Part shown: positions 35,004-57,000 of the stretch, piece after piece | Layout: each line of letters begins with the position of its first letter | How positions within the stretch are numbered: the first letter of the stretch is position 1 | DNA from: an uncultured Candidatus Saccharibacteria bacterium | GTDB taxonomy: Bacteria > Patescibacteriota > UBA1384 > JAGGWG01 > CAZAJM01 | Direction of reading: 5' to 3' | NCBI GenBank assembly: GCA_964485625.1 | Contig: CAZAJM010000004.1 | Coordinates: 3,349 to 67,348 of the forward strand | Length of the DNA stretch: 64,000 bases | Program-made: the position numbers and the translations under genes | Notes under the pieces: generated by a model | The model's input: only the letters and a program-made list of their open reading frames with translations | Databases searched by the model: none | Told to the model about the DNA's origin: nothing

Positions 35004-35241
35004 ATCTCTTAAGATCTAAGATTCGGACAAGAATGTTCCTCGGCTTCACAAATGTGAAGACGGGATCAACCTTGCGCCACCGATAAGTATATCGGCGACA
35101 TTCCTATTAGAAAGGAGGTATTCCATCCGCAGATTCCCCTACGGAAACCTTGTTACGACTTTGTCCCAGTCACTGGCTTCACCTTTATTCCACACAAGGT
35201 GGAATGTCCAGTGCCTCCAGCTTCTTTGACATGACGGGCGG

Positions 35242-36054
35242 ATTCTGATAGTTGAAGCAAACTTCAGGTTCCCACTAAGCATGCAGATTTCCCGCACTTA
35301 GCGAGTCCTTAATGCATTTTGTTTTTTAGATTAATAATTTTATCTAGTCCTTTCTCCGTGTAATGCTCCTTGTTTTCAATTAATTCCATAATTCTGGAAA
35401 ATAATTCAAAATCATTTCTTTTGGAGTTACTTCTTAAAGGATTTTCTCTAAAAAACTTGATGATTTTTTTGACGTCTTCAAGTCTTGAGGCTTGATATCG
35501 GTAGCACGTAGAATGATTTTTTCTACGATCTCTTTGAATGTATACAATGCCAAACCCTAAATATTCTTTTATCTGATAGAGCACCTGTTTGTCAAATGCT
35601 TTTAGCTTGATAACAAACATAGGCACAACTCTATTTCTGGTGCCATCGTCTTTTTTCTTTTTTACATAGACGTGAAAACACCCTTCTCCATCAGTTAAAC
35701 CGACTAAATAATCATCAGTAAGCATTAGGTTTTGTCCTTCCCTCGGCAAGTTTTGCCGGGTACTATGACTCAGCTGACTTCTTATGTTATTCATTTGCTT
35801 CTAGTATAACATAAGATCTCCCTGGATTAAATAAATTACTATTCCACACATCCCACGAATTTCTATAATATATTTTTACTTCCCTAACACACACCGGTTA
35901 GGTCGTAAAAAATGGTTTTAATGAAGTAATGATGGGCTATGTTTTGCCGTTGAGTCCTACAGTCAGTATCTCACGATAATTGACCTACTCTTGGCTATAT
36001 AAAAGGATTTTAACCTTTTAGCAAAATATCCTGCCAGGCGTCTTTATTAATTTT
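35242..36054 (-). mobile_element. 16S intervening sequence 1 at the decoding-centre helix (E. coli ~1398/1399), encoding a LAGLIDADG endonuclease
   Basis: Exon sequence ...gacgggcgg stops at 35241 and resumes tgtgtacaag at 36055. Boundaries are +/- a few nt. No terminal G is evident, so the intron class is undetermined. Confidence 0.7.
35309..35794 (-). CDS. LAGLIDADG homing endonuclease (single-motif type) inside 16S insertion 1
   Basis: 161 aa with LVGLTDGEGCFHVYV. Confidence 0.8.
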   Translation of the reverse strand: MNNIRSQLSHSTRQNLPREGQNLMLTDDYLVGLTDGEGCFHVYVKKKKDDGTRNRVVPMFVIKLKAFDKQVLYQIKEYLGFGIVYIQRDRRKNHSTCYRYQASRLEDVKKIIKFFRENPLRSNSKRNDFELFSRIMELIENKEHYTEKGLDKIINLKNKMH

Positions 36055-36381
36055 TGTGTACAAGACTCGAGAACATATTCACCGTAATGTGGCTGACTTA
36101 CGGTTACTAGCGATTCCATCTTCATGGAGTCGAATTTCAGACTCCAATCCGTACTGGGGTACATTTTAAGGGATTAGCTCCGTCTCGCGACTTGGCGAAA
36201 CCCATTGTATGTACCATTGTAGCGCGTGTGTCGCCCAAGACATAAGGGTCATGCTGATTTGGCGTCATCTCCACCTTCCTCCGTGTTGACCACGGCAGTC
36301 CTCTATGACAGATTTAACATAGAGCAGAGGTTGCGCTCGTTCAGGGACTTAACCCGACGTTTCACAACACGAGCTGACGAC

Positions 36382-37243
36382 CATGTTATTCCATTATTGC
36401 TAATGGCATGGACTATACCATCTTCCTTCATGAGGAAGTCAATGATTAATAGCAGTTACAGCCTGCTATTAGGACTACTAGACCTTTAGTAATAGTCACA
36501 AGTCTCTAAGGGCAATTTTATCTGATATTTTAATTGAGTATTTTTTCATTTCACTTATAGCTTTTTTTGCTGTATCTATTGTGAAATATAGACAATACGT
36601 TCCAGCAGATTTGTAATAATAGACTCTTGTATCAAGATTTAGCTTTTTTAACAAACCCTGATCAGTTTTAGTCTCTTGCTCATTTCCATAAACAATCCTC
36701 ATGTCATTTACCAGATTGTTACTTATTGAGCCGTCACCATCAAATCTTCCGCTGACATAAGAATATATGTCAGTCTTATTGTCTAGATTACGTATCAGTT
36801 TCTTAGATTTTTTGAAATTATATAACAGTTTTCTGTCATTTACATAAATTTGATAAGCAACCAATTTTCCGTTTTTATTTGGATAAATTTTATAGTTACG
36901 TATTTTTTCAGCTAACAGATTGTCAATATTTCTGTTTAAAGGCCGATATATTCTTAATTTTATTCTTTCGTTAGAATAATTAGCCTTTTTGAAAAAATTA
37001 TAAAACTTCCAAATGAGTTTAACGTTACAGTTGGTTAAGCCTACACTACTGGTTCTGTGGTATCCATCTGCACACCAAAGCCCAATAATATATTTATGTT
37101 TCAGTAAATCATAATTGCCCACGGAATTACCTTATTAATACTATTACTATTGTAACATGAATCGTATTAATTTGCTATAAGGTTTCTCCGTTTTGAATTG
37201 ATTTTTCCACTAGAAATTACTTTCTAGGGGGTCATTATTAAAT
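36382..37243 (-). mobile_element. 16S intervening sequence 2 (E. coli ~1052-1056 region), encoding a LAGLIDADG endonuclease
   Basis: Exon ...gagctgacgac stops at ~36381 and resumes aaccatgcaacacctgt at ~37244. The catg on both sides makes the junction ambiguous by 4 nt. Confidence 0.65.
36496..37122 (-). CDS. LAGLIDADG homing endonuclease (double-motif) inside 16S insertion 2
   Basis: 208 aa with IIGLWCADGYH and SGRFDGDGSI. Confidence 0.8.
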   Translation of the reverse strand: MGNYDLLKHKYIIGLWCADGYHRTSSVGLTNCNVKLIWKFYNFFKKANYSNERIKLRIYRPLNRNIDNLLAEKIRNYKIYPNKNGKLVAYQIYVNDRKLLYNFKKSKKLIRNLDNKTDIYSYVSGRFDGDGSISNNLVNDMRIVYGNEQETKTDQGLLKKLNLDTRVYYYKSAGTYCLYFTIDTAKKAISEMKKYSIKISDKIALRDL

Positions 37244-37520
37244 AACCATGCAACACCTGTCATCTGGCTCCCAAAGGGCACCTCCGATTTTCATCAGAGT
37301 TCCAGAGATGTCAAGTCTTGGTAAGGTTCTTCGCTTATTATCGAATTAAACCACACGCTCCACCGCTTGTGCGAGTCCCCGTCAATTCCTTTGAGTTTCA
37401 ATCTTGCGATCGTACTTCCCAGGCGGATCACTTAACGCGTTAGCTTCGAGACCAAACGGGGTCGATGCCGCCTAATCTCTAGTGATCATCGTTTACAGCT
37501 TTGACTACAGGGGTCTAAAT

Positions 37521-38535
37521 ATTTGCTCACATTGCTGTGAGGATTGGACTATATCATTTTCTAAAAATTTTCCATTTATTTTTTCTACTGCTAACAATTT
37601 TTTCAATTGTTGAATGAGAAAAATTTGTTAAATGGCTTATTCTAGAAATCCAGTTTTGTTGGCGTTTATGATCTTGATAAAGCAGTAAAATTTTATACAA
37701 CATACTTATTTGTTGTATGTTCGGCGCAATTATTGTAAAAAACCTTTTAAGGGCTTTTTCTGAATACAGGTTTAACCTGATTCTTTTATTTACAATTCCA
37801 ATTTTAGTTTCAATATTCCATTTTACTTGTAAATACTCTTTCAATAACTGAACTTCATTTTTTGAAAAACTATCTGTGCAAAAAACTCCTTTTCTAGCGT
37901 TGCCTATTATTGAACCGTCGTCTAGCCACCATACAGCTAAAGATAATTTGTCTAGATTATCTAGCCATTCTTTACTTATGGTTTTTACGTTGTTTGGATT
38001 CGTTATTTTCCAAATCTTAGTTAATTCAGGCAAAGCTCTACTTTGAAATCTTAGTTTTTTGTATCCGTAACTGCTATTGTCATTGCTTTCATCTTGTTCC
38101 CATACTGCATTGTTTGATGAAATAACCGACAATTTGGCAGCTTTCCAAAAAAAGTATTCTTGTTGTTTCTTTGAATGTCTATATGAGAATCTGGCATTTT
38201 TATACCCATTATGTATTTTTAAACTGCCATCTCCTAATAAAGATCCAAATATTATTGCTTTAGCTTGATCTGAATTAAATAATTTATCCATACTTGTTAG
38301 TATTATATCATAACAAACTATTTAATTCTCAGACACCATAGTCTCTACAGGGCCCGATATCATTTGCATAATATCAGACTCCCTCGGAATTGCCTTAAAA
38401 CACATGCTGTAGTAATCATGTTTTAAATTAAGGTTTCTCCGATAAAACTGAATGCACACTTTAGCATTGCTGCTAAAGGGGACACCTTTTGTTACTATTT
38501 ATTGAATAACGTCTATGAGACGTCAACGCGGTAAC
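37521..38535 (-). mobile_element. 16S intervening sequence 3 near the 790 loop (E. coli ~790-800), encoding a LAGLIDADG endonuclease
   Basis: Exon ...gactacaggggtctaaat stops at ~37520 and resumes gggatttatctaatccctttcgctacc at ~38536. Both flanks carry GGGTATCTAAT-like sequence, so the boundaries are +/- 15 nt. Confidence 0.6.
37554..38291 (-). CDS. LAGLIDADG homing endonuclease (double-motif) inside 16S insertion 3
   Basis: 245 aa with IIFGSLLGDGSL and WWLDDGSI. Confidence 0.8.
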   Translation of the reverse strand: MDKLFNSDQAKAIIFGSLLGDGSLKIHNGYKNARFSYRHSKKQQEYFFWKAAKLSVISSNNAVWEQDESNDNSSYGYKKLRFQSRALPELTKIWKITNPNNVKTISKEWLDNLDKLSLAVWWLDDGSIIGNARKGVFCTDSFSKNEVQLLKEYLQVKWNIETKIGIVNKRIRLNLYSEKALKRFFTIIAPNIQQISMLYKILLLYQDHKRQQNWISRISHLTNFSHSTIEKIVSSRKNKWKIFRK

Positions 38536-38955
38536 GGGATTTATCTAATCCCTTTCGCTACCAAAGCTTTCGTGCCTCAGCGTCAGAACAGACCTAGCAA
38601 ATTGCCTTCGCTTTCGGTGTTCCCTGTGATATCAACGGATTTCACCCCTACACCACAGGTTCCATTTGCCTCTGTCTGCCTCAATTTTGATAGTTTCCTT
38701 GGCGCTTTTCCTGTTAGGCAGGAAAATTTAACCAAAGACTTATCAAAACGCCTACGCACCCTTCACGCCCAATGATTCCGGATAACGCTCGCCCTCTATG
38801 TATTACCGCGACTGCTGGCACATAGTTAGTCAGGGCTGATAGCATGGTAAGTTCAAGATTTATTCCCATGCATTAGAACTTTACAATCCGAAGACCGTCT
38901 TCGTTCATGCGGTGTCGCTGCATCACCCGTTAGGGCATTGTGCAAGATTCCCCAT

Positions 38956-39001
<46 letters not shown>

Positions 39002-39605
39002 GGGGTCACGCTCTCACGTCCCCTAGCCGTCATAGCCTTGGTAAGCTTTTACCTTACCAACAAGCTGATAGCGAGCAGGTTCCTCTCAAAGCGCCGGAGC
39101 ATTTACTGCTAAGAAAATTAATTCATAGCAGACTATCAGGAATTGTTCCCAGTTTCCCGGGGTTATTCCTGTCTTTGAGGTAGATACCTACCTGTTACTC
39201 ACCCGTCCGCCGAGCAACCGAAGTTGCTCTCGACTTGCATATGTTAGGCACACCGCCAGCGTTAATCCTGAGCCGGGATCAAACTCTCCATAAAAATTGT
39301 CTTCTTTTTATCTTTATTTTTAACTCGTCTTAAAAAAGAAAGGGAAGACGAGTATTCTTGTCCGAGTCTCAGATCTTAACACTATTTGTTAAAGTACTAT
39401 TTAAAAAGCCTCTAACGAGAGGCGGTTAAAGCTACCAATATTTGTAATATTTTCTACAAATGCCTCCCAATACTTATTACTTTCTAAATTATAGTCTTAG
39501 TCTAAACAATCTAATTGCTGTTGTCAAGGGTATTGATATGAGTAGTTAATAGAACAAAAAAAGCTCGAATATGTAACAATTTATATTATATGTTAATATT
39601 ACGAG

Positions 39606-40363: not shown

Positions 40364-41614
40364 ATGGACAAGCTTATTAATCAATTCAAGAAGACTTTCA
40401 AAGCCGATCCTAGTTATCTACTAACTGCTCCTAGTCGGGCTAATCTTTCCGGGGCCCATGTCGACTACTTTGAGGGAGTAACAGTCTCAATTGCCTCCTC
40501 AAACTTAGTAATGAAGGCCTTGGTTAGGCCTCGAGATGATGGCAAGGTCAGGCTTTGCTCTATTGATCTAGACAATAAAACTCATATTTTAGATGAAGGT
40601 AGAAAAAGAGCTGGTTTTCAGTCTCTAGAGTACTTGCAGGGTGATAGAGAGGCATATAAGAAAAGGAGGGGTAATAATATGATAAAAGGTTTTAATATTC
40701 TAATCTCTTCTTCTATACCAATTGGCGGAGGCATGTCCTCTTCTTCAGCTCTTTCAGTAATTGGAGCCACTGCCTTCTCTTTAGCTAATGACTTTATTCT
40801 TAACAAGAGAGTCGAAGAGACTAAAGACGATATTATTACTTGGATTGGCGAGCAGGATAAAAAAGCCGACCAGTATCTTGAAGAGATTGCCCATATTGCC
40901 GGTGAGGCAGAGTGGTGGTATGGGACCAAAGGAGGCAAAATGGATCAGTTTACTATTAGCCTAGCCAAAGATGGTCAGGCCTTTATTTTAGATAATAGGA
41001 ATTTCACCTATAGCTATGCTAGTTGGCCAGAAGATTCTGCTATTGCAGTCTGTAATACCAATGTGCCTCATGACCAAAAAAAATCCGGTTTTGCCAATCG
41101 TAGGGAGCAGGCCGAGAAGGCTTTTAGTAAAATTAAAAAATATTTTAAGGATAAGAAGATCGAGACCTTTAGAGATGTTAGTTTGGATATGCTTGAAGAA
41201 GTCAAAGGTAGCCTGAGTAGTTTGGAGTACAAACGGGCTTTGCACCCGGTTAGTGAGATGGAGGAGAGAGCACCTAAGTTTATTAAGGCGCTAAATAATA
41301 GAGATTCAGTTCTAATTGGCAAGATACTATCTCAGACCTACTATAGCCTTAGAGATAATTATGGCACATCCTGCACGGAGTTAGATACAATGTACTCTTT
41401 GGCAGAAAAATTAGATGGTTTTTTGGGAGCTAGAATCACGGGTGGAGGTTTTGGTGGTTGCTTGGTCGCCTTAGTTGAGAGAGATAAGCTGGATTGCTTT
41501 TTGGATAATATCGGGAGAGAGTACAATAATCATAAGGAGATAAAAGAGAGGGATATTAAAGGTAAGTTTGTTGGTTTGGTCTCCGGCAGAGGTCTAAATA
41601 TCAAGACTCTTTAA
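40364..41614 (+). CDS. GHMP-family sugar kinase, galactokinase-like
   Basis: 416 aa. PSRANLSGAHVDYFEG (GalK-like N motif), PIGGGMSSSSALSV (GHMP ATP-binding motif) and GARITGGGFGGCLVAL. Confidence 0.75.
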   Translation: MDKLINQFKKTFKADPSYLLTAPSRANLSGAHVDYFEGVTVSIASSNLVMKALVRPRDDGKVRLCSIDLDNKTHILDEGRKRAGFQSLEYLQGDREAYKKRRGNNMIKGFNILISSSIPIGGGMSSSSALSVIGATAFSLANDFILNKRVEETKDDIITWIGEQDKKADQYLEEIAHIAGEAEWWYGTKGGKMDQFTISLAKDGQAFILDNRNFTYSYASWPEDSAIAVCNTNVPHDQKKSGFANRREQAEKAFSKIKKYFKDKKIETFRDVSLDMLEEVKGSLSSLEYKRALHPVSEMEERAPKFIKALNNRDSVLIGKILSQTYYSLRDNYGTSCTELDTMYSLAEKLDGFLGARITGGGFGGCLVALVERDKLDCFLDNIGREYNNHKEIKERDIKGKFVGLVSGRGLNIKTL

Positions 41615-41676
41615 TGATTGGAGTTAATCTGTGGTATAATAGCTTTAAAATATATAAGTATTAAAGGAGAGGCGAT

Positions 41677-42042
41677 ATGCTTTCTGCTTTTGTTGGTTGG
41701 TACTATCTAGATATCCCCAAAAGGCTTTTAGATTACTTTAAAGTCTGGCTATTTCACCTATATGATCTTTTTTCTGTAAAAATAATTCTTAAAACCTACC
41801 TTGCTCCCTGGAAGAGAGACTTGCTCTCTACTAGAAACCTGTCTCTTAACGAGCGGGTTAGGGTTTGGTGGATGAATGTAATTTCAAGGATGATCGGTGC
41901 TTTTATCAAGACTGCCACTTTAATTGGTTTTCTAATTAGCACCATTGGTTGGCTGGTGTTTTCACTAATCTATTTTTTTGGATGGTTACTTTTTCCATTA
42001 ATATTTATTCTTCTAATAATTGGCTACTCAAATATCCTATGA
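41677..42042 (+). CDS. Small membrane protein (3 TM), translationally coupled to the downstream Clp-like ATPase
   Basis: 121 aa. Its stop TGA overlaps the ATG at 42039 (ATGA). Confidence 0.45.
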   Translation: MLSAFVGWYYLDIPKRLLDYFKVWLFHLYDLFSVKIILKTYLAPWKRDLLSTRNLSLNERVRVWWMNVISRMIGAFIKTATLIGFLISTIGWLVFSLIYFFGWLLFPLIFILLIIGYSNIL

Positions 42043-44507
42043 ACCAGTTTGATATTAAAAAATCAGTTAACTACTCAGCTTACCGTCTTAGGAAGTTCTG
42101 CGGTTCTTGGTTTGGTAAGGTCCTAATAATATTATTTAATCTTATCGGTCTAGTTGGTTTGGGCCTGCTAATCTATCTAGTTTTTAACTACCAGCCCCTA
42201 GTTCTTGATTGGGCTCTAAGGGCAGGAGCAGCCTACTTGGCCTTTAAGATATTTCATATTTTTTATCTAGACTATCTATTGGGGCCAAAACTTAAAGTTG
42301 ATCAGGCTTTGAAATTTGTTAACAGTGGCAAAGAGTTCAACTTGGCCGATGGGCTAGATCCCTGTCTGTTAGGAGTCTTTGAGCAAGAAAAATATCTAGC
42401 TAAAGATATTGCTTTGGGTTTAATAGAGCTCGATGAACTCAACTTTGTCCTAAACCGAGCCGGAATTAGCCGTGATGAGATCAGGAGAAGAATCGAGGAG
42501 AACATTAACGGCGAACAGGTTGGTAGTAGAGAAGAGGTGGTTATTAAGGCCTTTCAAGTAGCCAAAGCTGAGGGGCATGGTGATGTTGGCCCCGGAGACT
42601 TGTTTATTGCTCTAACTATGATCGAACCGGCCTTAAAAAGATTGGTCGATGAACTGGGCTTGAGGTTAGAAGATCTACTTAATATTGTTTACTGGTATAA
42701 CCTAGTTAAGAGGAAGAATTTTAATTTTTTAGATACTAGTGATTTTATCTTCAATGGCGGGGTAGGCAAGGACTGGATCTTTGGCTATACCAGATACCTA
42801 AATCGGTACAGTCAGGATATTACTGACTTAATTAGACAGAATAGGAATAATCTAAAATACATTGGTCATCAGTCAGTTATTGACAAAATAGAGAAATCAT
42901 TACTTAGTAGTCAAGGCAAGAATATGGTTCTGGTCGGTTCGGAGGGTTCCGGTAAGCGTACTTCCGTCTATGGCTTAGCTAGAAGAATAGCTCTGGGCCA
43001 GGCCTATGGTGCTATTAATTTAAAGCGGGTTTTAGAGTTAGATCTGGAAGCTCTACTCTCAGGAGCGACTAGTAGAGGCGAGATTGTAGGAAGGTTGAAC
43101 CGAGTTTTTGGAGAGGCAGCCAGAGTTGGTAATCTAGTTCTTCTTATTGACAATTTTGATAATATATTGTCTACTAAAGCACTTGGGCAGGTTGATGCCA
43201 GCCAGATATTAATACCATACTTAAGCTCACCTGAATTTAATGTGATTGGTACCAGTCAACCGGGTCCATATCATCGGTATGTTGAGAATAACCCGGCTCT
43301 AGATCAACGAATTGAGAAAATTGAGATAGAGGAGCCTGGGGAGCAGGAGATGATTAGAATTTTAGAGGACTCTGTACCGTTGCTTGAAGCTAGAACGGGA
43401 TGTTTTTTCCGTTATCTTGCTATTAAAGAAGTTCTGTTTTTGGCCAATAAGTATGTCTTCAATCAACCTAACCCCCAAAAATCTTTAAAACTTCTAGATA
43501 AAGTGGCTAGTGAGAGTCGGGGTCAGATTGTGACTAGAGAGAGAGTAAGAGAGATTGCCTCTAGCGCCTACAAAGTGCCAGTTGGTGAAGCGGGTCAAAG
43601 GGAGAAAAGAAGACTTCTTAATTTAGAGGAGATACTTCATAGGAGAGTGATTAACCAAAATCAGGCAATTGAAGAGATAGCCCAGGCGATGAGAAGAGCC
43701 AGAGCCGAGATTGGCCAGAAAGGTAAAAAACCGATTGGTAGCTTCTTATTTATTGGACCTACTGGAGTTGGCAAGACAGAAACAGCTAAAGCTTTGGCAT
43801 CAAGTTACTTTAGTGGAGAAGAGAATATGGCTCGGTTTGATATGGGTGAGTACCAGAACAAACAAGATCTCTATCGACTAATTGGGGATAGTCAAGAGGG
43901 AGGCAGGCCCGGAGAACTTTCCCGAAAGTTAAATGAAAGCCCCCACAGCCTGCTCCTGTTTGATGAGGTAGAGAAAGCCCATCCGGATATTTTGAATCTG
44001 TTTTTACAAATTTTAGACGAGGGTGTAGCTACTACCAGCCAGGGTAAGAAATTAGTATTTTCCAACACTATAATTATTGCCACTTCAAATGCTGGTGCCG
44101 AGTATATTAGAAAGAAGATTGAAGAAGGAGTCAACCCAGCTGAGATAAGTGATGAGATCCAAGACTACTTGATGGATAAGGGTATCTTTAAACCAGAGTT
44201 TTTAAATAGGTTTAGTAGCGTGGTCTCTTTCTCCCCATTAACTAGAGCTCAGATTGAAAAGATAGCTAAGATAAAATTAGATAAGCTAAAAAGACAGATA
44301 AAATCAGAGAAAGATATTCAGATAAACTTCGGAGAGAACGTAGCTTCGGAGATAGCCAGCCGGGGTTATAACCCGGAGATGGGTGCCAGACCGATGGAGC
44401 GAACCATAGAGAGACTAATCGAGAACTTAATTGCTAAAAAAATACTTGCCAACGATCTAAAACGAGGCGAGAGTCTAACTATTAAAGTAGAGGATTTTGA
44501 GAATTAA
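42039..44507 (+). CDS. Membrane-anchored Clp/Hsp100-family AAA+ ATPase with degenerate first nucleotide-binding domain
   Basis: Start chosen at the ATGA-coupled ATG (the ORF track starts at 41949). It has two N-terminal TM helices. D1 Walker A is GSEGSGKRT (non-canonical). D2 is canonical ([41 protein letters not shown]), followed by a C-terminal ClpB_D2-small-like region. Confidence 0.65.
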   Translation: MNQFDIKKSVNYSAYRLRKFCGSWFGKVLIILFNLIGLVGLGLLIYLVFNYQPLVLDWALRAGAAYLAFKIFHIFYLDYLLGPKLKVDQALKFVNSGKEFNLADGLDPCLLGVFEQEKYLAKDIALGLIELDELNFVLNRAGISRDEIRRRIEENINGEQVGSREEVVIKAFQVAKAEGHGDVGPGDLFIALTMIEPALKRLVDELGLRLEDLLNIVYWYNLVKRKNFNFLDTSDFIFNGGVGKDWIFGYTRYLNRYSQDITDLIRQNRNNLKYIGHQSVIDKIEKSLLSSQGKNMVLVGSEGSGKRTSVYGLARRIALGQAYGAINLKRVLELDLEALLSGATSRGEIVGRLNRVFGEAARVGNLVLLIDNFDNILSTKALGQVDASQILIPYLSSPEFNVIGTSQPGPYHRYVENNPALDQRIEKIEIEEPGEQEMIRILEDSVPLLEARTGCFFRYLAIKEVLFLANKYVFNQPNPQKSLKLLDKVASESRGQIVTRERVREIASSAYKVPVGEAGQREKRRLLNLEEILHRRVINQNQAIEEIAQAMRRARAEIGQKGKKPIGSFLFIGPTGVGKTETAKALASSYFSGEENMARFDMGEYQNKQDLYRLIGDSQEGGRPGELSRKLNESPHSLLLFDEVEKAHPDILNLFLQILDEGVATTSQGKKLVFSNTIIIATSNAGAEYIRKKIEEGVNPAEISDEIQDYLMDKGIFKPEFLNRFSSVVSFSPLTRAQIEKIAKIKLDKLKRQIKSEKDIQINFGENVASEIASRGYNPEMGARPMERTIERLIENLIAKKILANDLKRGESLTIKVEDFEN

Positions 44508-44530
44508 AACTATTTAATAGATAAATTCTT

Positions 44531-44557
44531 GTTTTGAGCTAAAATCGGAAGTCGGAC
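44531..44557. terminator. 27-bp palindromic hairpin; a second copy of the same palindrome is at 8234-8260
   Basis: aaaatcggaagtcggacttccgatttt just after the stop of the Clp-like gene. The other copy is aaaatcggaagtccgacttccgatttt followed by gtgttttt. Confidence 0.55.
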
Positions 44558-44584
44558 TTCCGATTTTGTTGGCTTTGGTATGGC

Positions 44585-44613
44585 TTGACAAGATGTAAAG
44601 TATGCTTTACATT
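44585..44613 (+). promoter_or_regulatory. Putative promoter with an operator palindrome (TGTAAAG-N4-CTTTACA) for the HTH-Hsp20 gene
   Basis: TTGACA at 44585-44590, a 17-nt spacer containing the inverted repeat tgtaaagtatgctttaca (44594-44611), and TACATT as the -10. Confidence 0.5.
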
Positions 44614-44636
44614 ATATATAGCAACTAATTTAAATT

Positions 44637-45308
44637 ATGGCTGAAGATAAGTTTTCTAACAGATTAAAGGAGCTAAGAAGTGAGATGGAGCTAACCCAGA
44701 AAGAGCTGGCTAAATCTCTTGACATAAGTAGGCAATCGTTGTCTAACTTAGAGAAGGGACAGTTTTTTCCTTCTTTTGGTCTGATTATGGATCTAGAAGA
44801 CTTTTTTGAGATGCCAATTAGAGAGATATATAAATCTAATAAGAAGCCTCAATCCCGTAATTACGGGAAGAGGCAAGGAGGTAAAATGGATAAAAATCAC
44901 TCACCTTTTGACGAACTAAATCGAATGCGGGAAGAGTTTGACAAGATGTTTTCCGATTCTTTTGGCTCTGTTTCTACATCTTTTCCTAAGATAAATCTTT
45001 ATCAAGACGATTCCGATTTAGTAATTGAGGCTGAAGTTCCGGGAATGAGCAAAGATGATCTGGAGATCAATTTAACTTCTGGCTCGGTAAGTATTAGTGG
45101 CGAGCGTAAAGATTCTCAAGAAGTAAAGGAAGATAGCTATGTCAGAAAAGAGAGCTCTTTTGGCAAATTCCATCGCCAGGTGGATCTGCCAGTTGAGGTT
45201 GATGATTCCAAGGCCAAGGCAACTATTAAGGATGGCAGAGTGAAGATTGTTGCTCCGGTCAAAAATTCTAAGTCTAGCGAGAAAGGTTTAGAAATACAGG
45301 AGGAGTAA
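44637..45308 (+). CDS. Fusion of XRE-family HTH DNA-binding domain and Hsp20/alpha-crystallin small heat-shock domain
   Basis: 223 aa. The N-terminus NRLKELRSEMELTQKELAKSLDISRQSLSNLEKGQ is an HTH_XRE. The C-terminus LVIEAEVPGMSKDDLEINL ... ISGER ... RKESSFGKFHRQVDLPVEVD ... DGRVKIVAPV is an alpha-crystallin domain. Confidence 0.75.
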   Translation: MAEDKFSNRLKELRSEMELTQKELAKSLDISRQSLSNLEKGQFFPSFGLIMDLEDFFEMPIREIYKSNKKPQSRNYGKRQGGKMDKNHSPFDELNRMREEFDKMFSDSFGSVSTSFPKINLYQDDSDLVIEAEVPGMSKDDLEINLTSGSVSISGERKDSQEVKEDSYVRKESSFGKFHRQVDLPVEVDDSKAKATIKDGRVKIVAPVKNSKSSEKGLEIQEE

Positions 45309-45368
45309 GATTATCCCTCCTATTTTGGGAGGAATTGAGTTTATACAAAAAAATTAATTAAAATATTT

Positions 45369-48041
45369 ATGAAATGTGATCGATGTCAGAAAAATTCAGC
45401 TCAAATTCAAGTTACTAGAATTAAAGACGGCAAAAGAGTAACCGAGAAGATCTGCCAAGAGTGTGCTCAGAAAGACTCTTCCATTAGCGGCTTTGGTTCT
45501 GCCAGTGGTTCGCCTTTTTCTAGTGGGGGAGACGATATTGGCTCTCTTTTTGATGCTTTCTTTGGTGGAGGCGGTCAATCACCTTTCTCTGCTGCCAGAC
45601 AACCCCGAAGTGAGTCGATAAATATTGCTGATAATTTTAGCTCCGAACTCCAATCGGTAGTTGAAACAGCTAGTGATGTAGCTAGTAAGAAAAATAATCA
45701 ACAAATAGATACTGAGCATCTATTGATTGCTCTAACCGGAGATGATTTAGCTAAGAAGATATTTAAGCGTTTGAAGATTAAACCGACCGAGCTGAGAAAG
45801 AAAGTTAACCAGCAGATTAAAAAAGATAGTTACAGTCAGGAGCCTGATTTTTCTCCTAGAGCCAAGCGAGTCTTTAATATTGCCTACCAAGAGAGTTATA
45901 AGCTAGGTCATAGTTATGTCGGCCCGGAACACTTACTAATGGCTTTGGCCAAAGAAGGTGAAGGCTTAGCTGCTCAAATATTGAAAGAAGTCGGTGCTGA
46001 CTATAAATCAATTAAGAACGCTGTTGTTAAAGTTGTCGGTAAGGGAGAAGAGTATGGCAAAGGTGATCGAACGATGACGCCAACTTTGGATGAGTTTAGT
46101 CGAGATCTGACCGGCCAAGCTAGAGAGGGCAAGCTTGATCCTGTAATTGGTAGAGTAGATGAGATGAACGCTACTATGGAGATACTATCTAGAAGGACCA
46201 AGAACAATCCAGTTCTAATTGGTGAGGCCGGAGTAGGCAAGACCGCAATTGTAGAGGGCTTGGCTACCAAAATTATTAAAGATGAGGTACCGGCTCCTTT
46301 GAAGAACAAAAGACTTTTGGAGCTTGACTTAACGGGAGTAGTGGCCGGAACGAAGTATAGGGGGCAGTTTGAAGAGAGATTAAAGAAAATACTAAAAGAG
46401 ATTGAAGAGAATCAAGAAGATTTGATTGTTTTTGTCGATGAGATGCATTTAGTAGTTGGTGCCGGAGGATCTGGTGAGAGCGGAGGAATGGATGCCAGTA
46501 ATATTTTAAAACCTGCTTTGGCTAGAGGTGATCTACATATGATAGGTGCTACTACTTTAGATGAGTATCAGAAATATATTGAAAAAGATGCTGCTTTAGA
46601 GAGAAGATTTCAGCCGGTAATGGTCGATGAGCCAAATGTGGAGCAGACCATCAGTATTTTAAGAGGCCTAAAGGATGCCTACGAGGCTCACCATCGGGTT
46701 AAGTTAACTGACCAATCTTTGGTAGCTGCTGCTGAGCTATCAGACCAATATATCTCCGATAGATATTTGCCTGATAAAGCGATTGATCTAGTAGATCAAG
46801 CGGCTGCTAAAGTAAGATTGGCCCAAGTTTCAGATCCGGAGAAGTTAAAAGAAGTTAACAAAAAAATTAAGGAGGCGACCAAGGAGAAAGATCAGGCAGT
46901 CGCTGCCCAGAACTTTAAGAAGGCCAATAAATTAAAAAGTGAGATAGAGGATCTTAAGAAAGAGAAAGAGAAAATTGATGTTGGTGTCAAAAAAGACCAA
47001 GCAACCGGACAACCAAAAGTGACTACTCAAGAAGTAGCGGAGATAGTTTCAAGAAGAACCGGGGTGCCTGTCTCTAAATTAGCTGAAGAAGAGAAAGCTA
47101 AGCTACTTGATTTAGAAAAAAGAATCCACAAGCGAGTGATTGGTCAGGAAGAGGCAGTTGAGTCAATTAGCGAGGCAGTAAGAAGAGGCAGAGCGGGTCT
47201 TAAAAGCAAGAATAGACCGGTCGGTTCGTTTATCTTTCTAGGTCCCACCGGTGTAGGTAAGACGGAGCTAGCCAAGACCTTGGCCTATCAACTCTTTGGA
47301 GACGAGGAGGCTCTAATCAGAGTAGATATGAGTGAGTATATGGAGAAACACGCTGTCTCTAGATTAATTGGTGCTCCTCCTGGATATGTTGGTTATGAAG
47401 AGGCCGGCCAACTGACAGAAGCTGTTCGTAGAAAACCATATAGCGTAATACTTCTAGATGAAATTGAGAAAGCTCATCCGGATGTCTTTAATATTTTACT
47501 CCAAGTTTTGGAGGATGGCCGATTAACAGACGGCAAGGGTAGGGTGGTGGATTTTAAAAACACCATTATTATTGCTACTTCCAATATTGGCTCTAGTTTA
47601 ATTAGAGAGAGAAGCGAAAAAGAGGCAAAAGCTAAAACAAAGAAGAAAAAAGAAGAGATCTATGAAGAGACCAAAGAGGATTTAATGGAGCGGCTCAAAG
47701 AAGAGCTTAGGCCTGAGTTTCTAAACAGACTCGATGAGGTGATTGTCTTCCATAGTCTAGGTAAGGAGCAGATTAGAGAGATTGTAGAGCTAGAACTTGA
47801 TAAGACACGAAGATTATTGCGTGGCCAGGGCATTGAGTTGGAAGTAAGTAAGAAAGCCAAAGACAAAATTGCTAGTGAAGGCTATGACCCGTCTTTTGGT
47901 GCCAGACCACTAAGAAGGGTGGTTCAGACCAAGATAGAGAACCCAATCTCTAGTCTAATTTTAAAAGAAGAGGTTGATAAAGGCGATACAATCAAAGTTG
48001 ATCTAGATAAAAAGAAAGACTTTAGTTTTAAGAGTAAATAA
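45369..48041 (+). CDS. clpC: ClpC/ClpE-type Hsp100 ATPase with N-terminal C4 zinc finger
   Basis: 890 aa. N-terminal CDRC ... CQEC zinc ribbon and Gly/Ser linker, two Clp_N repeats, D1 [15 protein letters not shown], a short middle domain, D2 [15 protein letters not shown], and a ClpB_D2-small region. Confidence 0.9.
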
Positions 48042-48077
48042 AAAGACCTAGAAGTAATTTGGTAAGTAGTTAAACAA

Positions 48078-48551
48078 CTAGGCTTTGGTTGGATTTGATT
48101 TACTACCAAGCTTCTTTATGGTATAGATCGGGACGATTATTAAGATATATGCTGCTAGATGGCCGGTTATTAAATATATCCAACTCTCTAGTGCTAAATT
48201 TGAACCGAGATTTATCCAAGTAGAGAGATATATTGCCAATACAATTCCGTTATCAATGATAAACAGAATGTCTTGCTGGTTGGTGGTGACTACATTGTCG
48301 CATAAAATAAAAAGTACCATACCAATAGCAAAACCGGTAACAGTCAATGTTGTTAGCATATTTTCTTCTGTAATTGCCTCAGGATTTCCCAGCAAAACTA
48401 TCGCCAGCAAGGCTATTCCAAGTGTAGCCAGTAATATTATGGAATTACTCTTGTATCTTATAGCAAAGTATTGGATCCCAATAATTATTCCAAAAACAAG
48501 TAGGGCAAGAATAGTGGTGATGATACTCATTTTGTTCCTCCCATGGGTCAA
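48078..48551 (-). CDS. Hypothetical membrane protein (4-5 TM)
   Basis: 157 aa, hydrophobic throughout. Preferred over the antisense ORF 48256-48567. Confidence 0.45.
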   Translation of the reverse strand: MTHGRNKMSIITTILALLVFGIIIGIQYFAIRYKSNSIILLATLGIALLAIVLLGNPEAITEENMLTTLTVTGFAIGMVLFILCDNVVTTNQQDILFIIDNGIVLAIYLSTWINLGSNLALESWIYLITGHLAAYILIIVPIYTIKKLGSKSNPTKA

Positions 48552-52978: not shown

Positions 52979-55245
52979 ATATTGAGCTTTTAATAAGGAG
53001 GGGAGCCTTATTGGGCCATATTTAACTTATGGTTACTTGTAGTCCTTGACAAAGTGTTTTTAGTTGTTTAGACTTAAACCATGATAATTAGAGAACAATT
53101 TAGCAAGAGGGGGATATCGAAGTAGGCATAGATTCAATTACGGTTTCTTTTCTAGAATGCCTAAAAATTTAAGGCATTTTTTCATTGACTTGAGAATTGG
53201 CTAGTAGCTAGAAGCCCTCACTTAGAGCCTAGATTGAGCTCTATCTGAAGGTTTCTAACTGTTAGCCAGATTGGCTAGCGCAAAAATGAACTTTAACAAC
53301 TCGGTTGATAAGTAAAATAAATAGATAAAAATAGAAAATATTTCTATTTGCAATTTCTCGATTATGAAGTAGTTACTTTTGTAAATATATATGCGTATGG
53401 TGGATGTCTTGGTAGAAAGAGCCTATGAAGGACGTGGCAGGCTGCGATAAGCCTCGGTGAGTCGCCAAACAGACTTTGACCCGAGGATTTCCGAATGAGT
53501 TAACTCAGCTTGGTGAAAGCCAAGTTAATCCCGCTTTTTGTGGGATAGGGCACCCGTTGAATTGAAACATCTTAGTAAACGGAGGAAGAGAAAATAATAA
53601 TGATTTCCCTAGTAGTGGCGAGCGAACGGGAAACAGTCTAAACTTCTCGATTTATCGAGAAGGGTTGTGGGGTTTGCAATGTTTAGATCTATCTGTTAGT
53701 TGAAGGTCCCTGGAAAGGGCCGCCAAAGAGGGTAATAGCCCCGTAAACGAAAATAGAAAGATCTAATAGCATTTTCCCCAAGTACCATCGGACACGTGAA
53801 ACCCGGTGGGAATCTAGCTGGGACAACAGCTAAGACTAAATACTCTTTATGCCGATAGTGAACTAGTACCGTGAGGAAAAGATGAAAAGAACCCCTGTTA
53901 GGGGAGTGAAATAGAACCTGAAGCCATATGCTTACAATGAGGTGAAGTCGCGCTTTTGCGTGGTGACACCGTGCTTTTTGCAGAACGAGCCAACGAGTTA
54001 GCTGTATACGGCAAGCTTAATCCCGCTAAGCGGGAGAAGGCGTAGCGAAAGCGAGTTTTAACTAGCGTTTAGTCGTATGCACTAGACCCGAAACCAGGCG
54101 ATCTATCTATGGCCAGGGTGAACCCCGCCGAAAGGCGTGGGGGAGGCCCGAACACGTGAGAGCTGCAAATCTCTGTGATGAGCTGTGGATAGCGGTAAAA
54201 TGCCAATCGAGCCTGGCAATAGCTGGTTCTCTTCGAAATATATTTAGGTATAGCCTTTGTTAATTGCTAAGAAGAGGTAAGGCTCTGGATCGGTCTAGGT
54301 TCCTTTGTGAACCTAAACCGAATCAAACCTCAAATTCTTCTTAGTTTAGACAAAGAGTCAGAACGCGGGGGCTAAGCTTCGCGTTCGAAAGGGAAACAAC
54401 CCAGATCGTCATCTAAGGTCCCCAAATAAGATCTAAGTGGTAAAGGAAGTAGTTCGCCGAAGACAGGCAGGAGGTTAGCCTAGAGGTCGCAATCCTTTAA
54501 AGAGTGTGTAACAACTCACTGCCCAATCCGGTATGGATTGGCGGGCTGCGCCTAAAATGTAACGGGGCTAAGATCTTTACCGAAGATGCGACGTCCGGTT
54601 TTTCGGACGGGTAGAAGAGCGTTCTCATCGCACTGAAGCTCAGACTGTGAGGTCGGGTGGAGCGTTGAGAAGTGAGAATGTTGGCATGAGTAACGAATTA
54701 ATTCGATGAGAAATCGGATCACCCAATATCTAAGGTTTCCTCCGCAATGCTAATCAGCGGAGGGTTAGTCGGTCCTAAGCCCAACCCCGCCTGTGGCGGG
54801 GTCAAGCGATGGGCATGTGGTTAATATTCCACAACTATCACTTGTTCGCTACTATTGCTATAGATGACTTCCGCCATTTGGCGGAACTAGAAAAATTTAT
54901 AGCAAGAGAACAAGCGGTATCCGTACCGCAAACCGACGCAGGTAGATGGGTCGAGAAGACCAAGGTGATCGGAAGAACCCTCTCTAAGGAACTCGGCAAA
55001 AAAGCGTTCGTAACTTAGGGATAAGGACTGCCACGTAAAATTTTTCTTCGGAAAAACTAACGTGGCCGCAGCGAATGTGCCCGAGCGACTGTTTACCAAA
55101 AACACAGGTCTCTGCGAACTCGCAAGAGTATGTATAGAGACTGACCCCTGCCCAATGCCAGTGTGTTACGGGGATATCGTCACTTCGGTGACGGTTGAAC
55201 CTAAGCCCTGGTGAATGGCGGCGATAACTATAATCGTCCTAAGGT

Positions 55246-55843
55246 GGAATAGCTGCCTTAGTAAAATCTAGCTATATGCTGGAACATCTGAGTATAATTT
55301 GGTACTATGGTAGTATGTATCCTTAGATATGTACTATGTTAAGTAAAAAATCAAATTTGCAGGCAACCAGCAGGAAAGACCAATCTTTTGCCTGGTGGCT
55401 AGTAGGATTTACTGACGGAGAAGGATGCTTCTCTGTTAGTAAGTTTAGAAATCCTACAACAAGATCTGGATGGCAAGTATTTCCAGAGTTTGTAGTTACC
55501 CAAGGTGAGAGCAGCAAGCAATCACTTGATGAAATTAAGGATTTCTTCAAGTGTGGAGGTGTATATATTAACCGTAGAAATGATAATCACAAAGAAGATC
55601 TATATCGGTACTGTGTAAGATCGGTTGATGATCTAATCAATGTGATTATTCCATTTTTTGAAAAGCACCCGCTTAAGACTGCTAAACAAAAATCTTTTAT
55701 GGATTTCAAGAAAAAAGTCGAAGCTATAAAAGAAAAACGAAGTAAAAGATAGGAATCCTCAGAGACTATACGCTAGAGTCTGATATTCTATCAGATAAGA
55801 TATAGTCCGAACTTTAGTGCGAGCTAAAGACTAACAAATAATG
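55246..55843 (+). mobile_element. Group I intron at the E. coli L1931-equivalent site, encoding a LAGLIDADG endonuclease
   Basis: 5' exon ends CCTAAGGT (U at -1) and the intron ends in G before AGCGAAATTCC. An S-like element agatatagtccgaac lies ~35 nt before the 3' splice site. Confidence 0.75.
55336..55752 (+). CDS. LAGLIDADG homing endonuclease (single-motif) in 23S intron 1
   Basis: 138 aa with LVGFTDGEGCFSVS. Confidence 0.8.
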   Translation: MLSKKSNLQATSRKDQSFAWWLVGFTDGEGCFSVSKFRNPTTRSGWQVFPEFVVTQGESSKQSLDEIKDFFKCGGVYINRRNDNHKEDLYRYCVRSVDDLINVIIPFFEKHPLKTAKQKSFMDFKKKVEAIKEKRSKR

Positions 55844-55863
55844 AGCGAAATTCCTTGTCAGGT

Positions 55864-56121
55864 AAAATGTCAGAATTTGCCTGAGCAGTGTCGTGAGATG
55901 CTGTTAGTAATCCGGCTAATAACGAGGGAATCCCACAATTGTGGGACAACCCCGTGGGAAGTCTAGACCACTAGTTAGTGGATGGACCCCGTAACGACTG
56001 AGTCGAAAGACGAGATCTAAGACTTAAAGCTTAGATAATACGCCGGCACTCCAATTTATATTTTGGAGTTGAAGAGATAGTCTAATTCTAGTTGAATATA
56101 AAAACTAGTTCTAATTAAATG
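55864..56121 (+). mobile_element. ORF-less group I intron at the L1951-equivalent site
   Basis: Exon GTCAGGT ends in T, the intron ends ...aattaaatG, and the exon resumes AAGTTCTGACC. Internal core ccgtgggaagtc...ggatggaccccgtaacgactgagtcgaaaga and S-like gagatagtctaattc. Confidence 0.7.
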
Positions 56122-56677
56122 AAGTTCTGACCTGCACGAAAGGGGTAACGGTTTGGGCTCTGTCTCGGAGAGGGATCCGGTGAAATTGCAATGTGGGTGA
56201 AAATGCCCACTACTTACGGCAGGACGGAAAGACCCCGTGAAGCTTTACTACAGGCTGGTATTGGATTGAGGGGGCTTTTGTCGAGAATAGGTGGGAGACT
56301 TTGAAGTTAGGACGCCAGTCCTAATGGAGTCGCCAGTGGAATACCACCCTTAAGACCTTTTAATTCTAACCTTGGTTCGTTTCATAGATTGACTGAGGAA
56401 CAGTGCTTGCTGGGTAGTTTATCTGGGGCGGATGCCTCCTAAATAGTAACGGAGGCGTGCTAAGGTTCTCTAGTCCAGTATGGAAATCTGGATGATAGTG
56501 CAAAAGCATAAGAGAGCCTCGACTGCAAGACTTACAAGTCGAGCAGGTGCGAAAGCAGGCTTTAGTGATCCGACGTTTCCCTTTGTACAGGGGCGAAGCT
56601 CAACGGATAAAAGCTACTCCGGGGATAACAGGTTAATCGGGCCCAAGAGCTCATATCGACGGCCCGGTTTGACACCT

Positions 56678-57000
56678 CAACATAGTCGACGATCCACGCA
56701 AGTGGATTATGGGGTGTAACGTTAAGCAATTAGCGTTTAGTAATTCGATCAAAACGGTGGAACCTTCTTTATGTAATCTATATTGTATTGTATAATATAG
56801 GTGTAAATAGAAAGGCAATACCGTGGGAGATCCAGAAAATGGATAACCCGTAGAGACTTAATTGTAATTAAATACAATTAGATTCAGTGTATTTTTGCTG
56901 GATAATACGTCGAACTCTCCGATTTTATCGGAGATGAAGGTATAGTCCAAACCTATTGGAAACATTAGGTAGTAACATTAGAAAATGTTATGTAAATTTG
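56678..57000 (+). mobile_element. ORF-less group I intron at the L2500-equivalent site (peptidyl-transferase loop)
   Basis: Exon ...GACACCT ends in T, the intron ends ...aaatttG, and the exon resumes CGATGTCGGCTC. It carries ccgtgggagatcc...ggataacccgtagagactt and S-like gaaggtatagtccaaacc. Confidence 0.7.

Follow-up and report, generated by a model that had tools for sequence, protein, structure and literature searches.

The 64,000-nucleotide stretch analysed here (referred to as the window) is part of contig CAZAJM010000004.1 in assembly GCA_964485625.1 of an uncultured Candidatus Saccharibacteria bacterium, and contains, between two genes for Clp/Hsp100-type ATPases, a gene whose 223-residue product joins an XRE-type helix-turn-helix (HTH) to a small heat-shock protein (sHSP). 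According to a program-made list of open reading frames (ORFs), four plus-strand genes span positions 41677 to 48041: a small membrane protein, a membrane-anchored Clp ATPase, the HTH-Hsp20 fusion and a ClpC-like ATPase with a zinc ribbon (Table 1). An original prediction, made from the DNA letters of the window, had interpreted the fusion as a stress-sensing repressor that acts on a palindrome in its own promoter, and its central claims (the two domains, a conserved operator and operator sites at chaperone genes) found support in the analysis described below.

The fusion protein and the operator in its promoter

Domain searches with the 223-residue protein recovered both parts above the Pfam cutoffs. 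Residues 10–64 matched positions 1–55 of HTH_3 (PF01381) at 39.3 bits (cutoff 23, E 6.5e-10), and residues 123–221 matched HSP20 (PF00011) at 67 bits (cutoff 20.8, E 1.7e-18); a HrcA, CtsR or MerR-type domain was not among the Pfam and NCBIfam matches of the fusion. An AlphaFold model built on 68 homologues from protein databases revealed a five-helix HTH bundle with a predicted local distance difference test (pLDDT) of 90–98, a disordered linker (residues 70–85), a helix (residues 90–106) and an alpha-crystallin sandwich (residues 117–208, pLDDT about 90), and its predicted template modelling score (pTM) of 0.43 suggests two independent domains on a tether. The top 50 Foldseek hits of this model were all sHSPs or alpha-crystallin-domain proteins, and both the XRE HTH and the full Hsp20 domain are confirmed, as had been proposed.

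The nearest solved relatives by sequence were a PbsX-family regulator (9k3w, 3e-9) and CylR2 (6e-7) for the HTH, and HspA (PDB 6ewn, 1.3e-14) for the sHSP part. The segment M84-DKNHSPFDELNRMREEFDKMF aligned to the N-termini of free-standing sHSPs, and the C-terminal anchoring motif read L-E-I in the window fusion and K-I-x-I-K in its relatives. Judged by its sequence, the sHSP part is complete, with the N-terminal region, the domain and the IXI-type tail all present. The family comprises at least 362 clusters at 90% identity, the best 120 of which all combine HTH_3 with HSP20, and about 55–60 of the best 150 representatives at 50% identity were full-length fusions. Databases name these homologues only 'Hsp20 family protein', from Patescibacteria or Berkelbacteria, and no NCBIfam model describes the HTH-Hsp20 fusion family.

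The fusion gene is preceded by a promoter with a –35 hexamer at 44585–44590 and a –10 hexamer at 44608–44613, separated by 17 bp, which constituted the best promoter match within 41500–48300. The palindrome TGTAAAGtatgCTTTACA occupies the spacer of this promoter at exactly the position, and with exactly the sequence, originally reported; its N4 centre is tatg and its arms extend to 8 bp (ATGTAAAG/CTTTACAT). Taken alone, a single palindrome in 64 kb is not significant, as at least one palindrome with two or fewer mismatches was obtained in 40 of 100 shuffles of the window, and no second copy was present in the window even when 2–3 mismatches were allowed. Its weight therefore comes from conservation and from recurrence elsewhere.

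Orthologous promoters were fetched via protein similarity, not via the DNA. Seven distinct orthologous promoters, down to 45–49% protein identity, keep CTTGACA-N3-(T/A)GTAAAG-N4-(C/T)TTTACA, and in these same seven the N4 spacer (tatg, gatg, tatc, catc or cttg) and the flanks could not be aligned. A metagenome protein set, also fetched by protein similarity and consisting of relatives that are all at most 52% identical to the window fusion and lie outside its lineage, yielded a perfect palindrome within 150 nt upstream of 15 of 17 HTH homologues, against a background of 1.7% of random 180-nt windows holding the palindrome at two or fewer mismatches. The left half-site, located within the promoter spacer, matches the right half perfectly as its inverted complement, and since it is conserved where sigma-70 promoters are normally unconstrained, it appears to be the footprint of a sequence-specific binder.

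With half-site centres 11 bp apart inside the 17-bp spacer, an overlapped –10 hexamer and a consensus –35 hexamer, the sequence geometry fits an XRE dimer that represses by occlusion. MerR-type activation was considered and rejected, given the 17-bp spacer and the consensus –35. The locus thus displays what marks an autoregulated repressor: a conserved inverted repeat in the gene's own promoter that overlaps core promoter elements.

Table 1. Positions in the window of the genes, domains and regulatory elements around the HTH-Hsp20 fusion gene.
Feature	Position	Strand	Remarks
Small membrane protein, 121 amino acids, two clear C-terminal transmembrane segments	41677..42042	+	synteny kept in L001-L007
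Membrane-anchored Clp/Hsp100-like ATPase, 822 amino acids	42039..44507	+	one strong N-terminal transmembrane helix, no Clp_N domain
Intrinsic-terminator-like hairpin, 13 pairs and T-run	44540..44568	+	end of membrane-Clp unit
Sigma-70-type promoter TTGACA-17-TACATT of the fusion gene	44585..44613	+	10/12 match
Putative operator, inverted repeat TGTAAAG-N4-CTTTACA	44594..44611		fills promoter spacer, overlaps –10 hexamer
HTH-Hsp20 fusion gene, 223 amino acids, putative heat-shock repressor	44637..45308	+	start without Shine-Dalgarno sequence, leader ~17 nt
XRE/Cro-C1 HTH, residues 10-64, recognition helix ISRQSL	44664..44828	+	
RNA hairpin in linker-coding region, abutting the 5′ side of the internal Shine-Dalgarno sequence	44846..44874	+	compensatory changes in L001, L006, L008
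Internal Shine-Dalgarno sequence AAGGAGG, 4 nt, in-frame ATG (Met84, 44886-44888)	44875..44888	+	putative start of ~140-residue free sHSP
Alpha-crystallin domain, residues 117-208	44985..45260	+	SPF motif and helix 90-106 before, L-E-I (IXI-type) tail after
Weak hairpin with poor U-tract, between fusion gene and zinc-finger Clp gene	45316..45332	+	counterpart of different sequence in L001, L005, L006
ClpC-like Hsp100, 890 amino acids, N-terminal zinc ribbon, Gly/Ser-rich linker	45369..48041	+	

Operator sites at chaperone genes and a proposed origin of the DNA-binding module

Scanning one genome per species (185,579 species, 596 Gb) for the exact pattern TTGACA-N3-TGTAAAG-N4-CTTTACA, with its 20 specified bases, revealed at least 119 matching loci, against an estimated 4–6 expected by chance at 30–40% GC. 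Among the matches listed, 68 sites were located in genomes that are unclassified or belong to the candidate phyla radiation (CPR), and 25 of these precede fusion genes (23 full-length, 2 cut by a contig end), the full-length products being 27–39% identical to the window protein. A further 26 of the 68 sites precede dnaK, 8 precede groES, 2 precede grpE, and 5 precede an operon of a small membrane protein and a small XRE protein. In four of the dnaK loci (L017, L054, L090 and L096) a site with one mismatch was found before dnaJ. Moreover, at least eight genomes (CAYPDD01, DATEAX01, JAPLVH01, CAZOJE01, CAZHFJ01, CAYSSM01, CAZGWE01 and JAUSIS01) have the site in front of dnaK or groES as well as in front of the fusion gene. 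The palindrome that had been singled out in the window thus recurs in fusion-encoding CPR genomes before dnaK, groES and grpE and, with a single mismatch, before dnaJ.

No CIRCE-like site (TTAGCACTC-N9-GAGTGCTAA, at most 4 mismatches) was detected in the 68 listed CPR or unclassified loci, and no CtsR box (A/GGTCAAA-NAN-A/GGTCAAA) in the listed CPR loci, which fits the earlier suggestion that the fusion takes the place of HrcA or CtsR logic. On sequence grounds, the genes that bear the site are those of a classical HrcA or HspR regulon, here placed under a different regulator. Because the same cassette drives dnaK, dnaJ, grpE and groES in fusion-bearing CPR, the fusion is likely to be their master heat-shock repressor, and we consider it probable from these comparisons that in CPR the protein binds the operator and represses heat-shock genes. 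No close relative of the window was present among the genomes with scan matches, and blastn returned only similarity to ribosomal RNA (rRNA) and Clp genes; the 972-kb contig of P0264 added no further regulon information within 10 kb.

The same promoter and operator also occur in Planctomycetota, Bacteroidota, Chloroflexota, Acidobacteriota, Gemmatimonadota, Elusimicrobiota, Spirochaetota, Gammaproteobacteria and Bacillota, as well as in a few Parcubacteria and Microgenomates-type CPR. Behind these non-fusion operators stand genes for a 62–81-residue XRE protein or for a small protein with multiple transmembrane segments (weak DUF2178 match), and in 24 of 45 listed cases the small XRE gene overlaps or directly follows the membrane-protein gene. 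The small XRE proteins share the HTH subfamily of the fusion (LTQ..LA..LGVSRQTI.AIE.GKY.PSL.LA.KIA..F...IE.IF), and the recognition helix is common to the fusion and to the small XRE proteins behind the same operator in other phyla. In non-CPR loci, a second operator is often located 21 bp upstream, where it overlaps the –35 hexamer.

The cassette of a small multi-transmembrane protein and an XRE protein was observed at non-CPR loci (L013, L018–L129) of at least 10 other phyla; from its sequences it gives the impression of an autoregulated pair of genes, very widespread and so far uncharacterised, whose operator is deeply conserved. We propose that a CylR1/CylR2-type module of a membrane partner plus XRE protein would have donated the HTH and the operator, and that in CPR the fused sHSP would have replaced the membrane partner and the operator would have spread to chaperone promoters. 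A separate observation concerns six metagenome loci (L142, L143, L146, L149–L151) at which a perfect operator precedes a gene for an HTH protein of 137–150 residues; these proteins share the recognition helix and match only the N-terminal 109–136 query residues. By their sequences, these proteins may represent a third architecture of the module with a different C-terminal part.

The proposed repressor circuit and its alternatives

We interpret the 223-residue protein as a repressor of heat-shock genes that carries a covalently attached sHSP as its sensor, and assign this reading a probability of roughly 0.7. In the proposed mechanism, the XRE-type HTH of the long form would bind TGTAAAG-N4-CTTTACA as a dimer or oligomer, and because the operator fills the spacer between the –35 and –10 hexamers and overlaps the latter, RNA polymerase would be blocked. 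In the window, this would repress the fusion gene itself and, by read-through, probably also the zinc-finger ClpC-like unfoldase. Upon proteotoxic stress, the sHSP moiety would be drawn into sHSP-client assemblies, or its oligomeric state would shift (e.g. with temperature), upon which the HTH would leave the DNA and the regulon of DnaK/J/GrpE, GroES-EL, the sHSP and, in this lineage, the Clp unfoldase would be derepressed. Once DnaK/J/GrpE and the Clp unfoldase had cleared the clients, the repressor would be free again and the loop closed. That the sHSP part senses by client titration is the more tentative component of this reading, to which we give slightly less than an even chance. A broader version holds that the entire heat-shock response in a large part of CPR (Saccharibacteria, Berkelbacteria and other Patescibacteria) depends on a single sHSP-fused XRE repressor, tuned by a free chaperone from an internal start, with the module grafted from a membrane-signal XRE system; the odds of this version we judge to be even.

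The free chaperone is suggested by the junction between the linker and the sHSP part, where nearly all fusion genes (the window, L001, L006, L008, L010, L016–L123) contain an in-frame ATG with AAGGAGG, GGAGG or AAGGAG located 4–10 nt before it. In L005, which lacks the junction Met, AAAGGAGG-N4-GTG was found at the same place. The junction Shine-Dalgarno (SD) sequence is conserved as a nucleotide sequence, with varying encoded residues and codon phase (QGGK, RGGN, KEVI, KELA, KENE, EEV and others): Lys-Glu at the junction is encoded as AAG-GAG in 7 of 7 cases versus 4 of 26 at other positions of these genes, and the first Gly as GGA in 12 of 12 versus 31% overall. The anti-SD match at the junction is the strongest of the whole gene in 17 of 26 genes, the main start having none, and the 3′ end of the 16S rRNA in the window (35112–35124) probably carries CCUCC. 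Free-standing sHSP relatives start exactly at the residue that corresponds to the junction Met.

At the main start, the ATG is located 8 nt past the end of the operator in at least 12 scan loci, 9 of them full-length fusion genes. As this places it about 6 nt after the –10 hexamer, the mRNA of these loci is suggested to be leaderless; the chaperone genes in the scan loci use SD sequences. Taking these sequence features together, two products are most likely made from the mRNA: a long repressor in small amounts, from a start without SD sequence that is often leaderless, and a free sHSP in abundance, from the internal SD sequence and ATG. We lean towards actual use of the internal start and regard it as rather more probable than its being silent. 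The free sHSP would then co-assemble with the long form or compete with it for clients and so set the gain of the loop, in a direction that is not readable from sequence.

Two RNA structures at the junction were considered. The hairpin that abuts the SD sequence has stems GCCUC/GAGGC and CCCGUA/UACGGG in the window and GCCCC/GGGGC and GCUCUC/GAGAGC in L001, and may be the relic of an intergenic element or a signal for mRNA processing or stability. As a general feature of the family it was rejected, being confined to the sublineage of the window and a few others (in the top 3 in 4 of 27). An RNA thermometer, for which the internal SD sequence of the window could base-pair with CCUUUU in the S-P-F codons further downstream, was rejected as well because this pairing was not reproduced in L001, L006, L008 or L010.

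Several points weigh against the proposed circuit. The entire case is comparative and drawn from sequence. The scan pattern includes the –35 hexamer and other geometries fall outside it, so that the counts of operator loci represent a sample, and the regulon was seen in other CPR lineages: the window has one operator and contains no dnaK, groES or grpE within its 64 kb. Some CPR genomes (L012, L069, L085 and L107) encode a separate small XRE protein with the same operator, and in a genome that holds both the fusion and a small XRE protein, the operator could be shared. In front of the zinc-finger Clp gene, a weak hairpin (45316–45332) and a weak promoter-like site (45335–45364) are found, which makes its control by the operator less certain. 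The internal SD sequence and ATG could be a relic of gene fusion, and heterodimers of the long and short forms could act opposite to the proposed direction. Finally, the sHSP part might only add oligomerisation and no sensing.

This last point leads to the alternative that survives best, which we nevertheless consider unlikely: an autoregulated XRE repressor whose Hsp20 part is an oligomerisation scaffold or a co-expressed chaperone rather than a sensor, and which is induced through thermolability of the HTH-DNA complex (as for RheA and CtsR) or through another factor. As the small XRE relatives of 62–81 residues use the same operator without an sHSP, DNA binding evidently needs no sHSP part, and the flexible linker with no predicted contact between the domains (pTM 0.43) points the same way. 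However, the in-frame fusion has been kept over at least 362 clusters despite very different linker lengths, and it occurs precisely in those lineages that have the operator on chaperone genes. The client-binding N-terminal region and the IXI tail, needless for a mere dimeriser, have also been retained. Moreover, Escherichia coli IbpA offers a precedent for an sHSP as a titratable aggregation sensor (bioRxiv 10.1101/2020.04.20.050740; PMC10410725).

Far less probable is that the long ORF is a by-product of evolution or annotation and that the real system is a two-gene hth-hsp20 operon with an ordinary autoregulator, from which a short XRE protein and, via the internal SD sequence and ATG, an sHSP are made. 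The strong conserved SD sequence and ATG at the junction would fit such an operon, as would the free sHSP relatives that begin at that Met and the hairpin before the SD sequence in the lineage of the window, which resembles an old intergenic element. No stop codon separates the two parts, however, in the 29 genes read as DNA or in hundreds of clusters; without selection on the fusion, stops and frameshifts should have been common at 27–39% identity and with variable linkers. Nor was any conserved stop-codon-like or slippery feature found.

Barely credible, finally, is a DNA-tethered chaperone that guards the nucleoid or DNA-bound proteins and for which the palindrome is a promoter element instead of a binding site: the sHSP is complete and, by its sequence, probably chaperone-active, and the palindrome partly coincides with the –10 hexamer, but its left half-site, a perfect inverted match to the right one, lies in spacer that is normally unconserved. 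XRE HTH domains, moreover, recognise specific sequences, homologous small XRE genes from many phyla have the palindrome in their own promoters (often in tandem 21 bp apart), as is typical of autoregulators, and the sites concentrate on chaperone genes.

The Clp ATPases, the neighbourhood and known systems

The 822-residue membrane Clp has a strong transmembrane helix at residues ~27–50 and a second one that was only weakly predicted, so that of the earlier description the degenerate D1 Walker A stands, and two full transmembrane helices do not. Its D1 domain combines the Walker A motif GSEGSGKRT (residues 300–308) with the Walker B motif LLIDN, in which Asn replaces the catalytic Glu, and its D2 and D2-small domains are canonical. 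The enzyme could extract or unfold membrane proteins. The gene is coupled, as previously noted, to that of the 121-residue protein by an ATGA at 42039–42042, in which the TGA of the latter overlaps the ATG of the former. The small protein had been credited with three transmembrane segments, of which only two were clearly predicted, and Pfam and NCBIfam searches gave no match for it. The pair is kept in the lineage of the window (L001–L008).

The 890-residue ATPase contains a CxxC-N22-CxxC zinc ribbon (C3, C6, C29 and C32), and its Pfam architecture reads Clp_N twice, AAA, AAA_lid_9, UVR, AAA_2 and ClpB_D2-small, with Walker A and B motifs intact. Its best PDB match was Bacillus subtilis ClpC (1.9e-269), in one stretch that included the short UVR middle domain, and the zinc ribbon (residues 1–44) resembles McsA (NCBIfam NF053706, 6e-6), ClpE or ClpG. 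The [ILVM]G[FL] tripeptide was absent from the entire protein, the VGF of B. subtilis ClpC aligning to A-K-A-K. Scores of 968.7 bits against ClpG and 990.1 bits against ClpK lay below the NCBIfam cutoff of 1900, and the match to ClpB (TIGR03346, 1026.6 bits, cutoff 1232.1) was likewise below its threshold and split around the middle domain. Filing the protein as ClpC, ClpE, ClpB or ClpG was rejected, as it fails one defining feature of each; of the zinc-finger ClpC/ClpE that had been proposed, the zinc ribbon and the ClpC architecture hold, but a ClpP-docking loop is missing.

Because this loop is missing, the 890-residue protein is, as far as its sequence tells, probably a ClpC-like unfoldase or disaggregase that is independent of ClpP. 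It may work like ClpG or ClpK without belonging to either family, an N-terminal zinc-binding region and the absence of a ClpP loop being common to them. Its architecture was also observed to resemble that of stand-alone disaggregases (ClpG, ClpL), below the family thresholds.

In the window, 60 nt separate the fusion gene from the zinc-finger Clp gene, and the gaps of L008 (34 nt) and L124 (8 nt) lack the hairpin. In L005 and L008, an SD sequence leads the zinc-finger Clp start; in the window, L001 and L006 there is none. Directly before this start, the sequence (A)ATATT(T)-ATG is conserved in the window (45335–45368), L001, L005, L006 and L008, which may reflect either an internal promoter with a leaderless start or a signal for initiation independent of an SD sequence. 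It is likely but not certain that the operator controls the zinc-finger Clp gene through read-through.

Gene order in the lineage of the window is conserved, from the transmembrane protein through the membrane Clp, the fusion and the zinc-finger Clp to membrane proteins of 149 and 75 residues. The membrane Clp gene has its own extended –10 promoter region upstream, a terminator downstream and no operator, and given this strong terminator hairpin and the lack of an operator it falls outside the regulated unit. As a Clp gene adjoins the fusion gene in only 2 of 23 other fusion loci and the membrane Clp is separately transcribed without operator, the 'compact module' of three genes that had been described is a lineage-specific neighbourhood and not a regulated unit: the adjacency is real, but the genes do not form a single unit.

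Elsewhere, the window contains split 16S and 23S rRNA genes, serS, secA, gyrB, an intein-bearing gyrA and infB. This gene content and the Patescibacteria or Berkelbacteria names of the fusion homologues assign the organism to the CPR. The rRNA genes do not form one operon and were found at 35112–39294 (minus strand) and 53377–56723 (plus strand), with large insertions. The 16S gene matches in the pieces 36057–37392 and 38501–39294, with ORFs at 36496–37122 and 37554–38291 between and a probable 3′ end near 35112, and the 23S gene spans 3347 nt versus 2925 nt for the model. Such insertions are typical of CPR rRNA introns, and the locus of a relative (L002) contains a LAGLIDADG-like ORF. The gyrA gene (26188–30093) encodes a 1301-residue product with an intein that contains a LAGLIDADG homing endonuclease (Intein_splicing and LAGLIDADG_3 inside DNA_topoisoIV).

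Should the proposed circuit prove correct, it would provide a concrete candidate for a heat-shock regulator of CPR, which account for much of bacterial diversity and have tiny genomes with few regulators; we know of no heat-shock regulator described for CPR/Patescibacteria. The predicted regulon comprises dnaK, dnaJ, grpE, groES-EL and the gene of the regulator, to which this lineage would add that of the Clp unfoldase. To our knowledge, this would be the first case in which a misfolding-sensing chaperone is physically part of a transcription factor, which makes the chaperone-titration model directly testable: one 223-residue protein and a 20-bp duplex would suffice to test the predictions in vitro. 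The protein would constitute a minimal, self-contained proteotoxic-stress circuit and a compact, portable stress-responsive switch, in which a DNA-binding module with a deeply conserved operator has been re-wired from a membrane signal to a cytoplasmic folding sensor. Hundreds of 'Hsp20 family protein' database entries would then need re-annotation.

Bacterial heat-shock regulation is explained by a few systems (sigma-32, HrcA, HspR, CtsR and RheA). In the HrcA/CIRCE and HspR/HAIR systems, an inverted repeat is bound in the sigma-70 promoters of dnaK, grpE, dnaJ, groES-groEL and the regulator's own gene, and GroEL or DnaK serve as co-regulators that provide feedback via the folding state of the cell. 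The fusion resembles these systems in having an inverted repeat at the promoters of dnaK, dnaJ, grpE, groES and its own gene, but differs in the operator, in the absence of a HrcA or MerR-type domain and in the ATP-independent sHSP that is fused to the regulator instead of acting as a separate GroEL or DnaK.

The XRE-family regulator ClgR activates clp and lon genes in Actinobacteria, with no chaperone domain and a different operator; an XRE-type HTH devoted to proteostasis genes is the likeness here. With the CtsR-McsA-McsB-ClpC operon of Bacillus the locus shares the order of a repressor followed by a ClpC-type ATPase and a zinc ribbon like that of McsA, whereas CtsR, the McsB kinase and the CtsR direct repeat are absent and the Clp protein lacks the ClpP-docking loop. 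CylR2-type regulators have the same HTH type, and the non-CPR relatives have the same recognition helix, operator and –35/–10 geometry; these relatives differ in their size of 62–81 residues, in a co-transcribed membrane protein as the presumed signal source and in having the operator on their own operon only.

Of the precedents, E. coli IbpA comes closest to the sensing step proposed here; it represses its own translation and that of rpoH until it is sequestered by aggregates (bioRxiv 10.1101/2020.04.20.050740; PMC10410725; PMC10474464). There, too, an sHSP acts as a titratable sensor, but IbpA works on mRNA 5′ untranslated regions and has no DNA-binding domain, whereas an HTH and a DNA operator would place the control exercised by the fusion at transcription initiation.

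In the searchable full-text literature, outside which most subscription journals fall, no HTH-sHSP regulator, no such operator and no heat-shock regulation in CPR was found to be described, and the TM7x transcriptome paper makes no mention of a heat-shock regulator of TM7x. The original remark that such a fusion had not been described as a regulator thus agrees with our literature search, a prior description in subscription journals being possible. Compared with the systems above, the kind of control is known, namely a repressor of chaperone genes with feedback from the folding state; new within this kind are the family of the regulator and its operator, together with the covalent joining of chaperone and repressor and a gene that would yield two isoforms.

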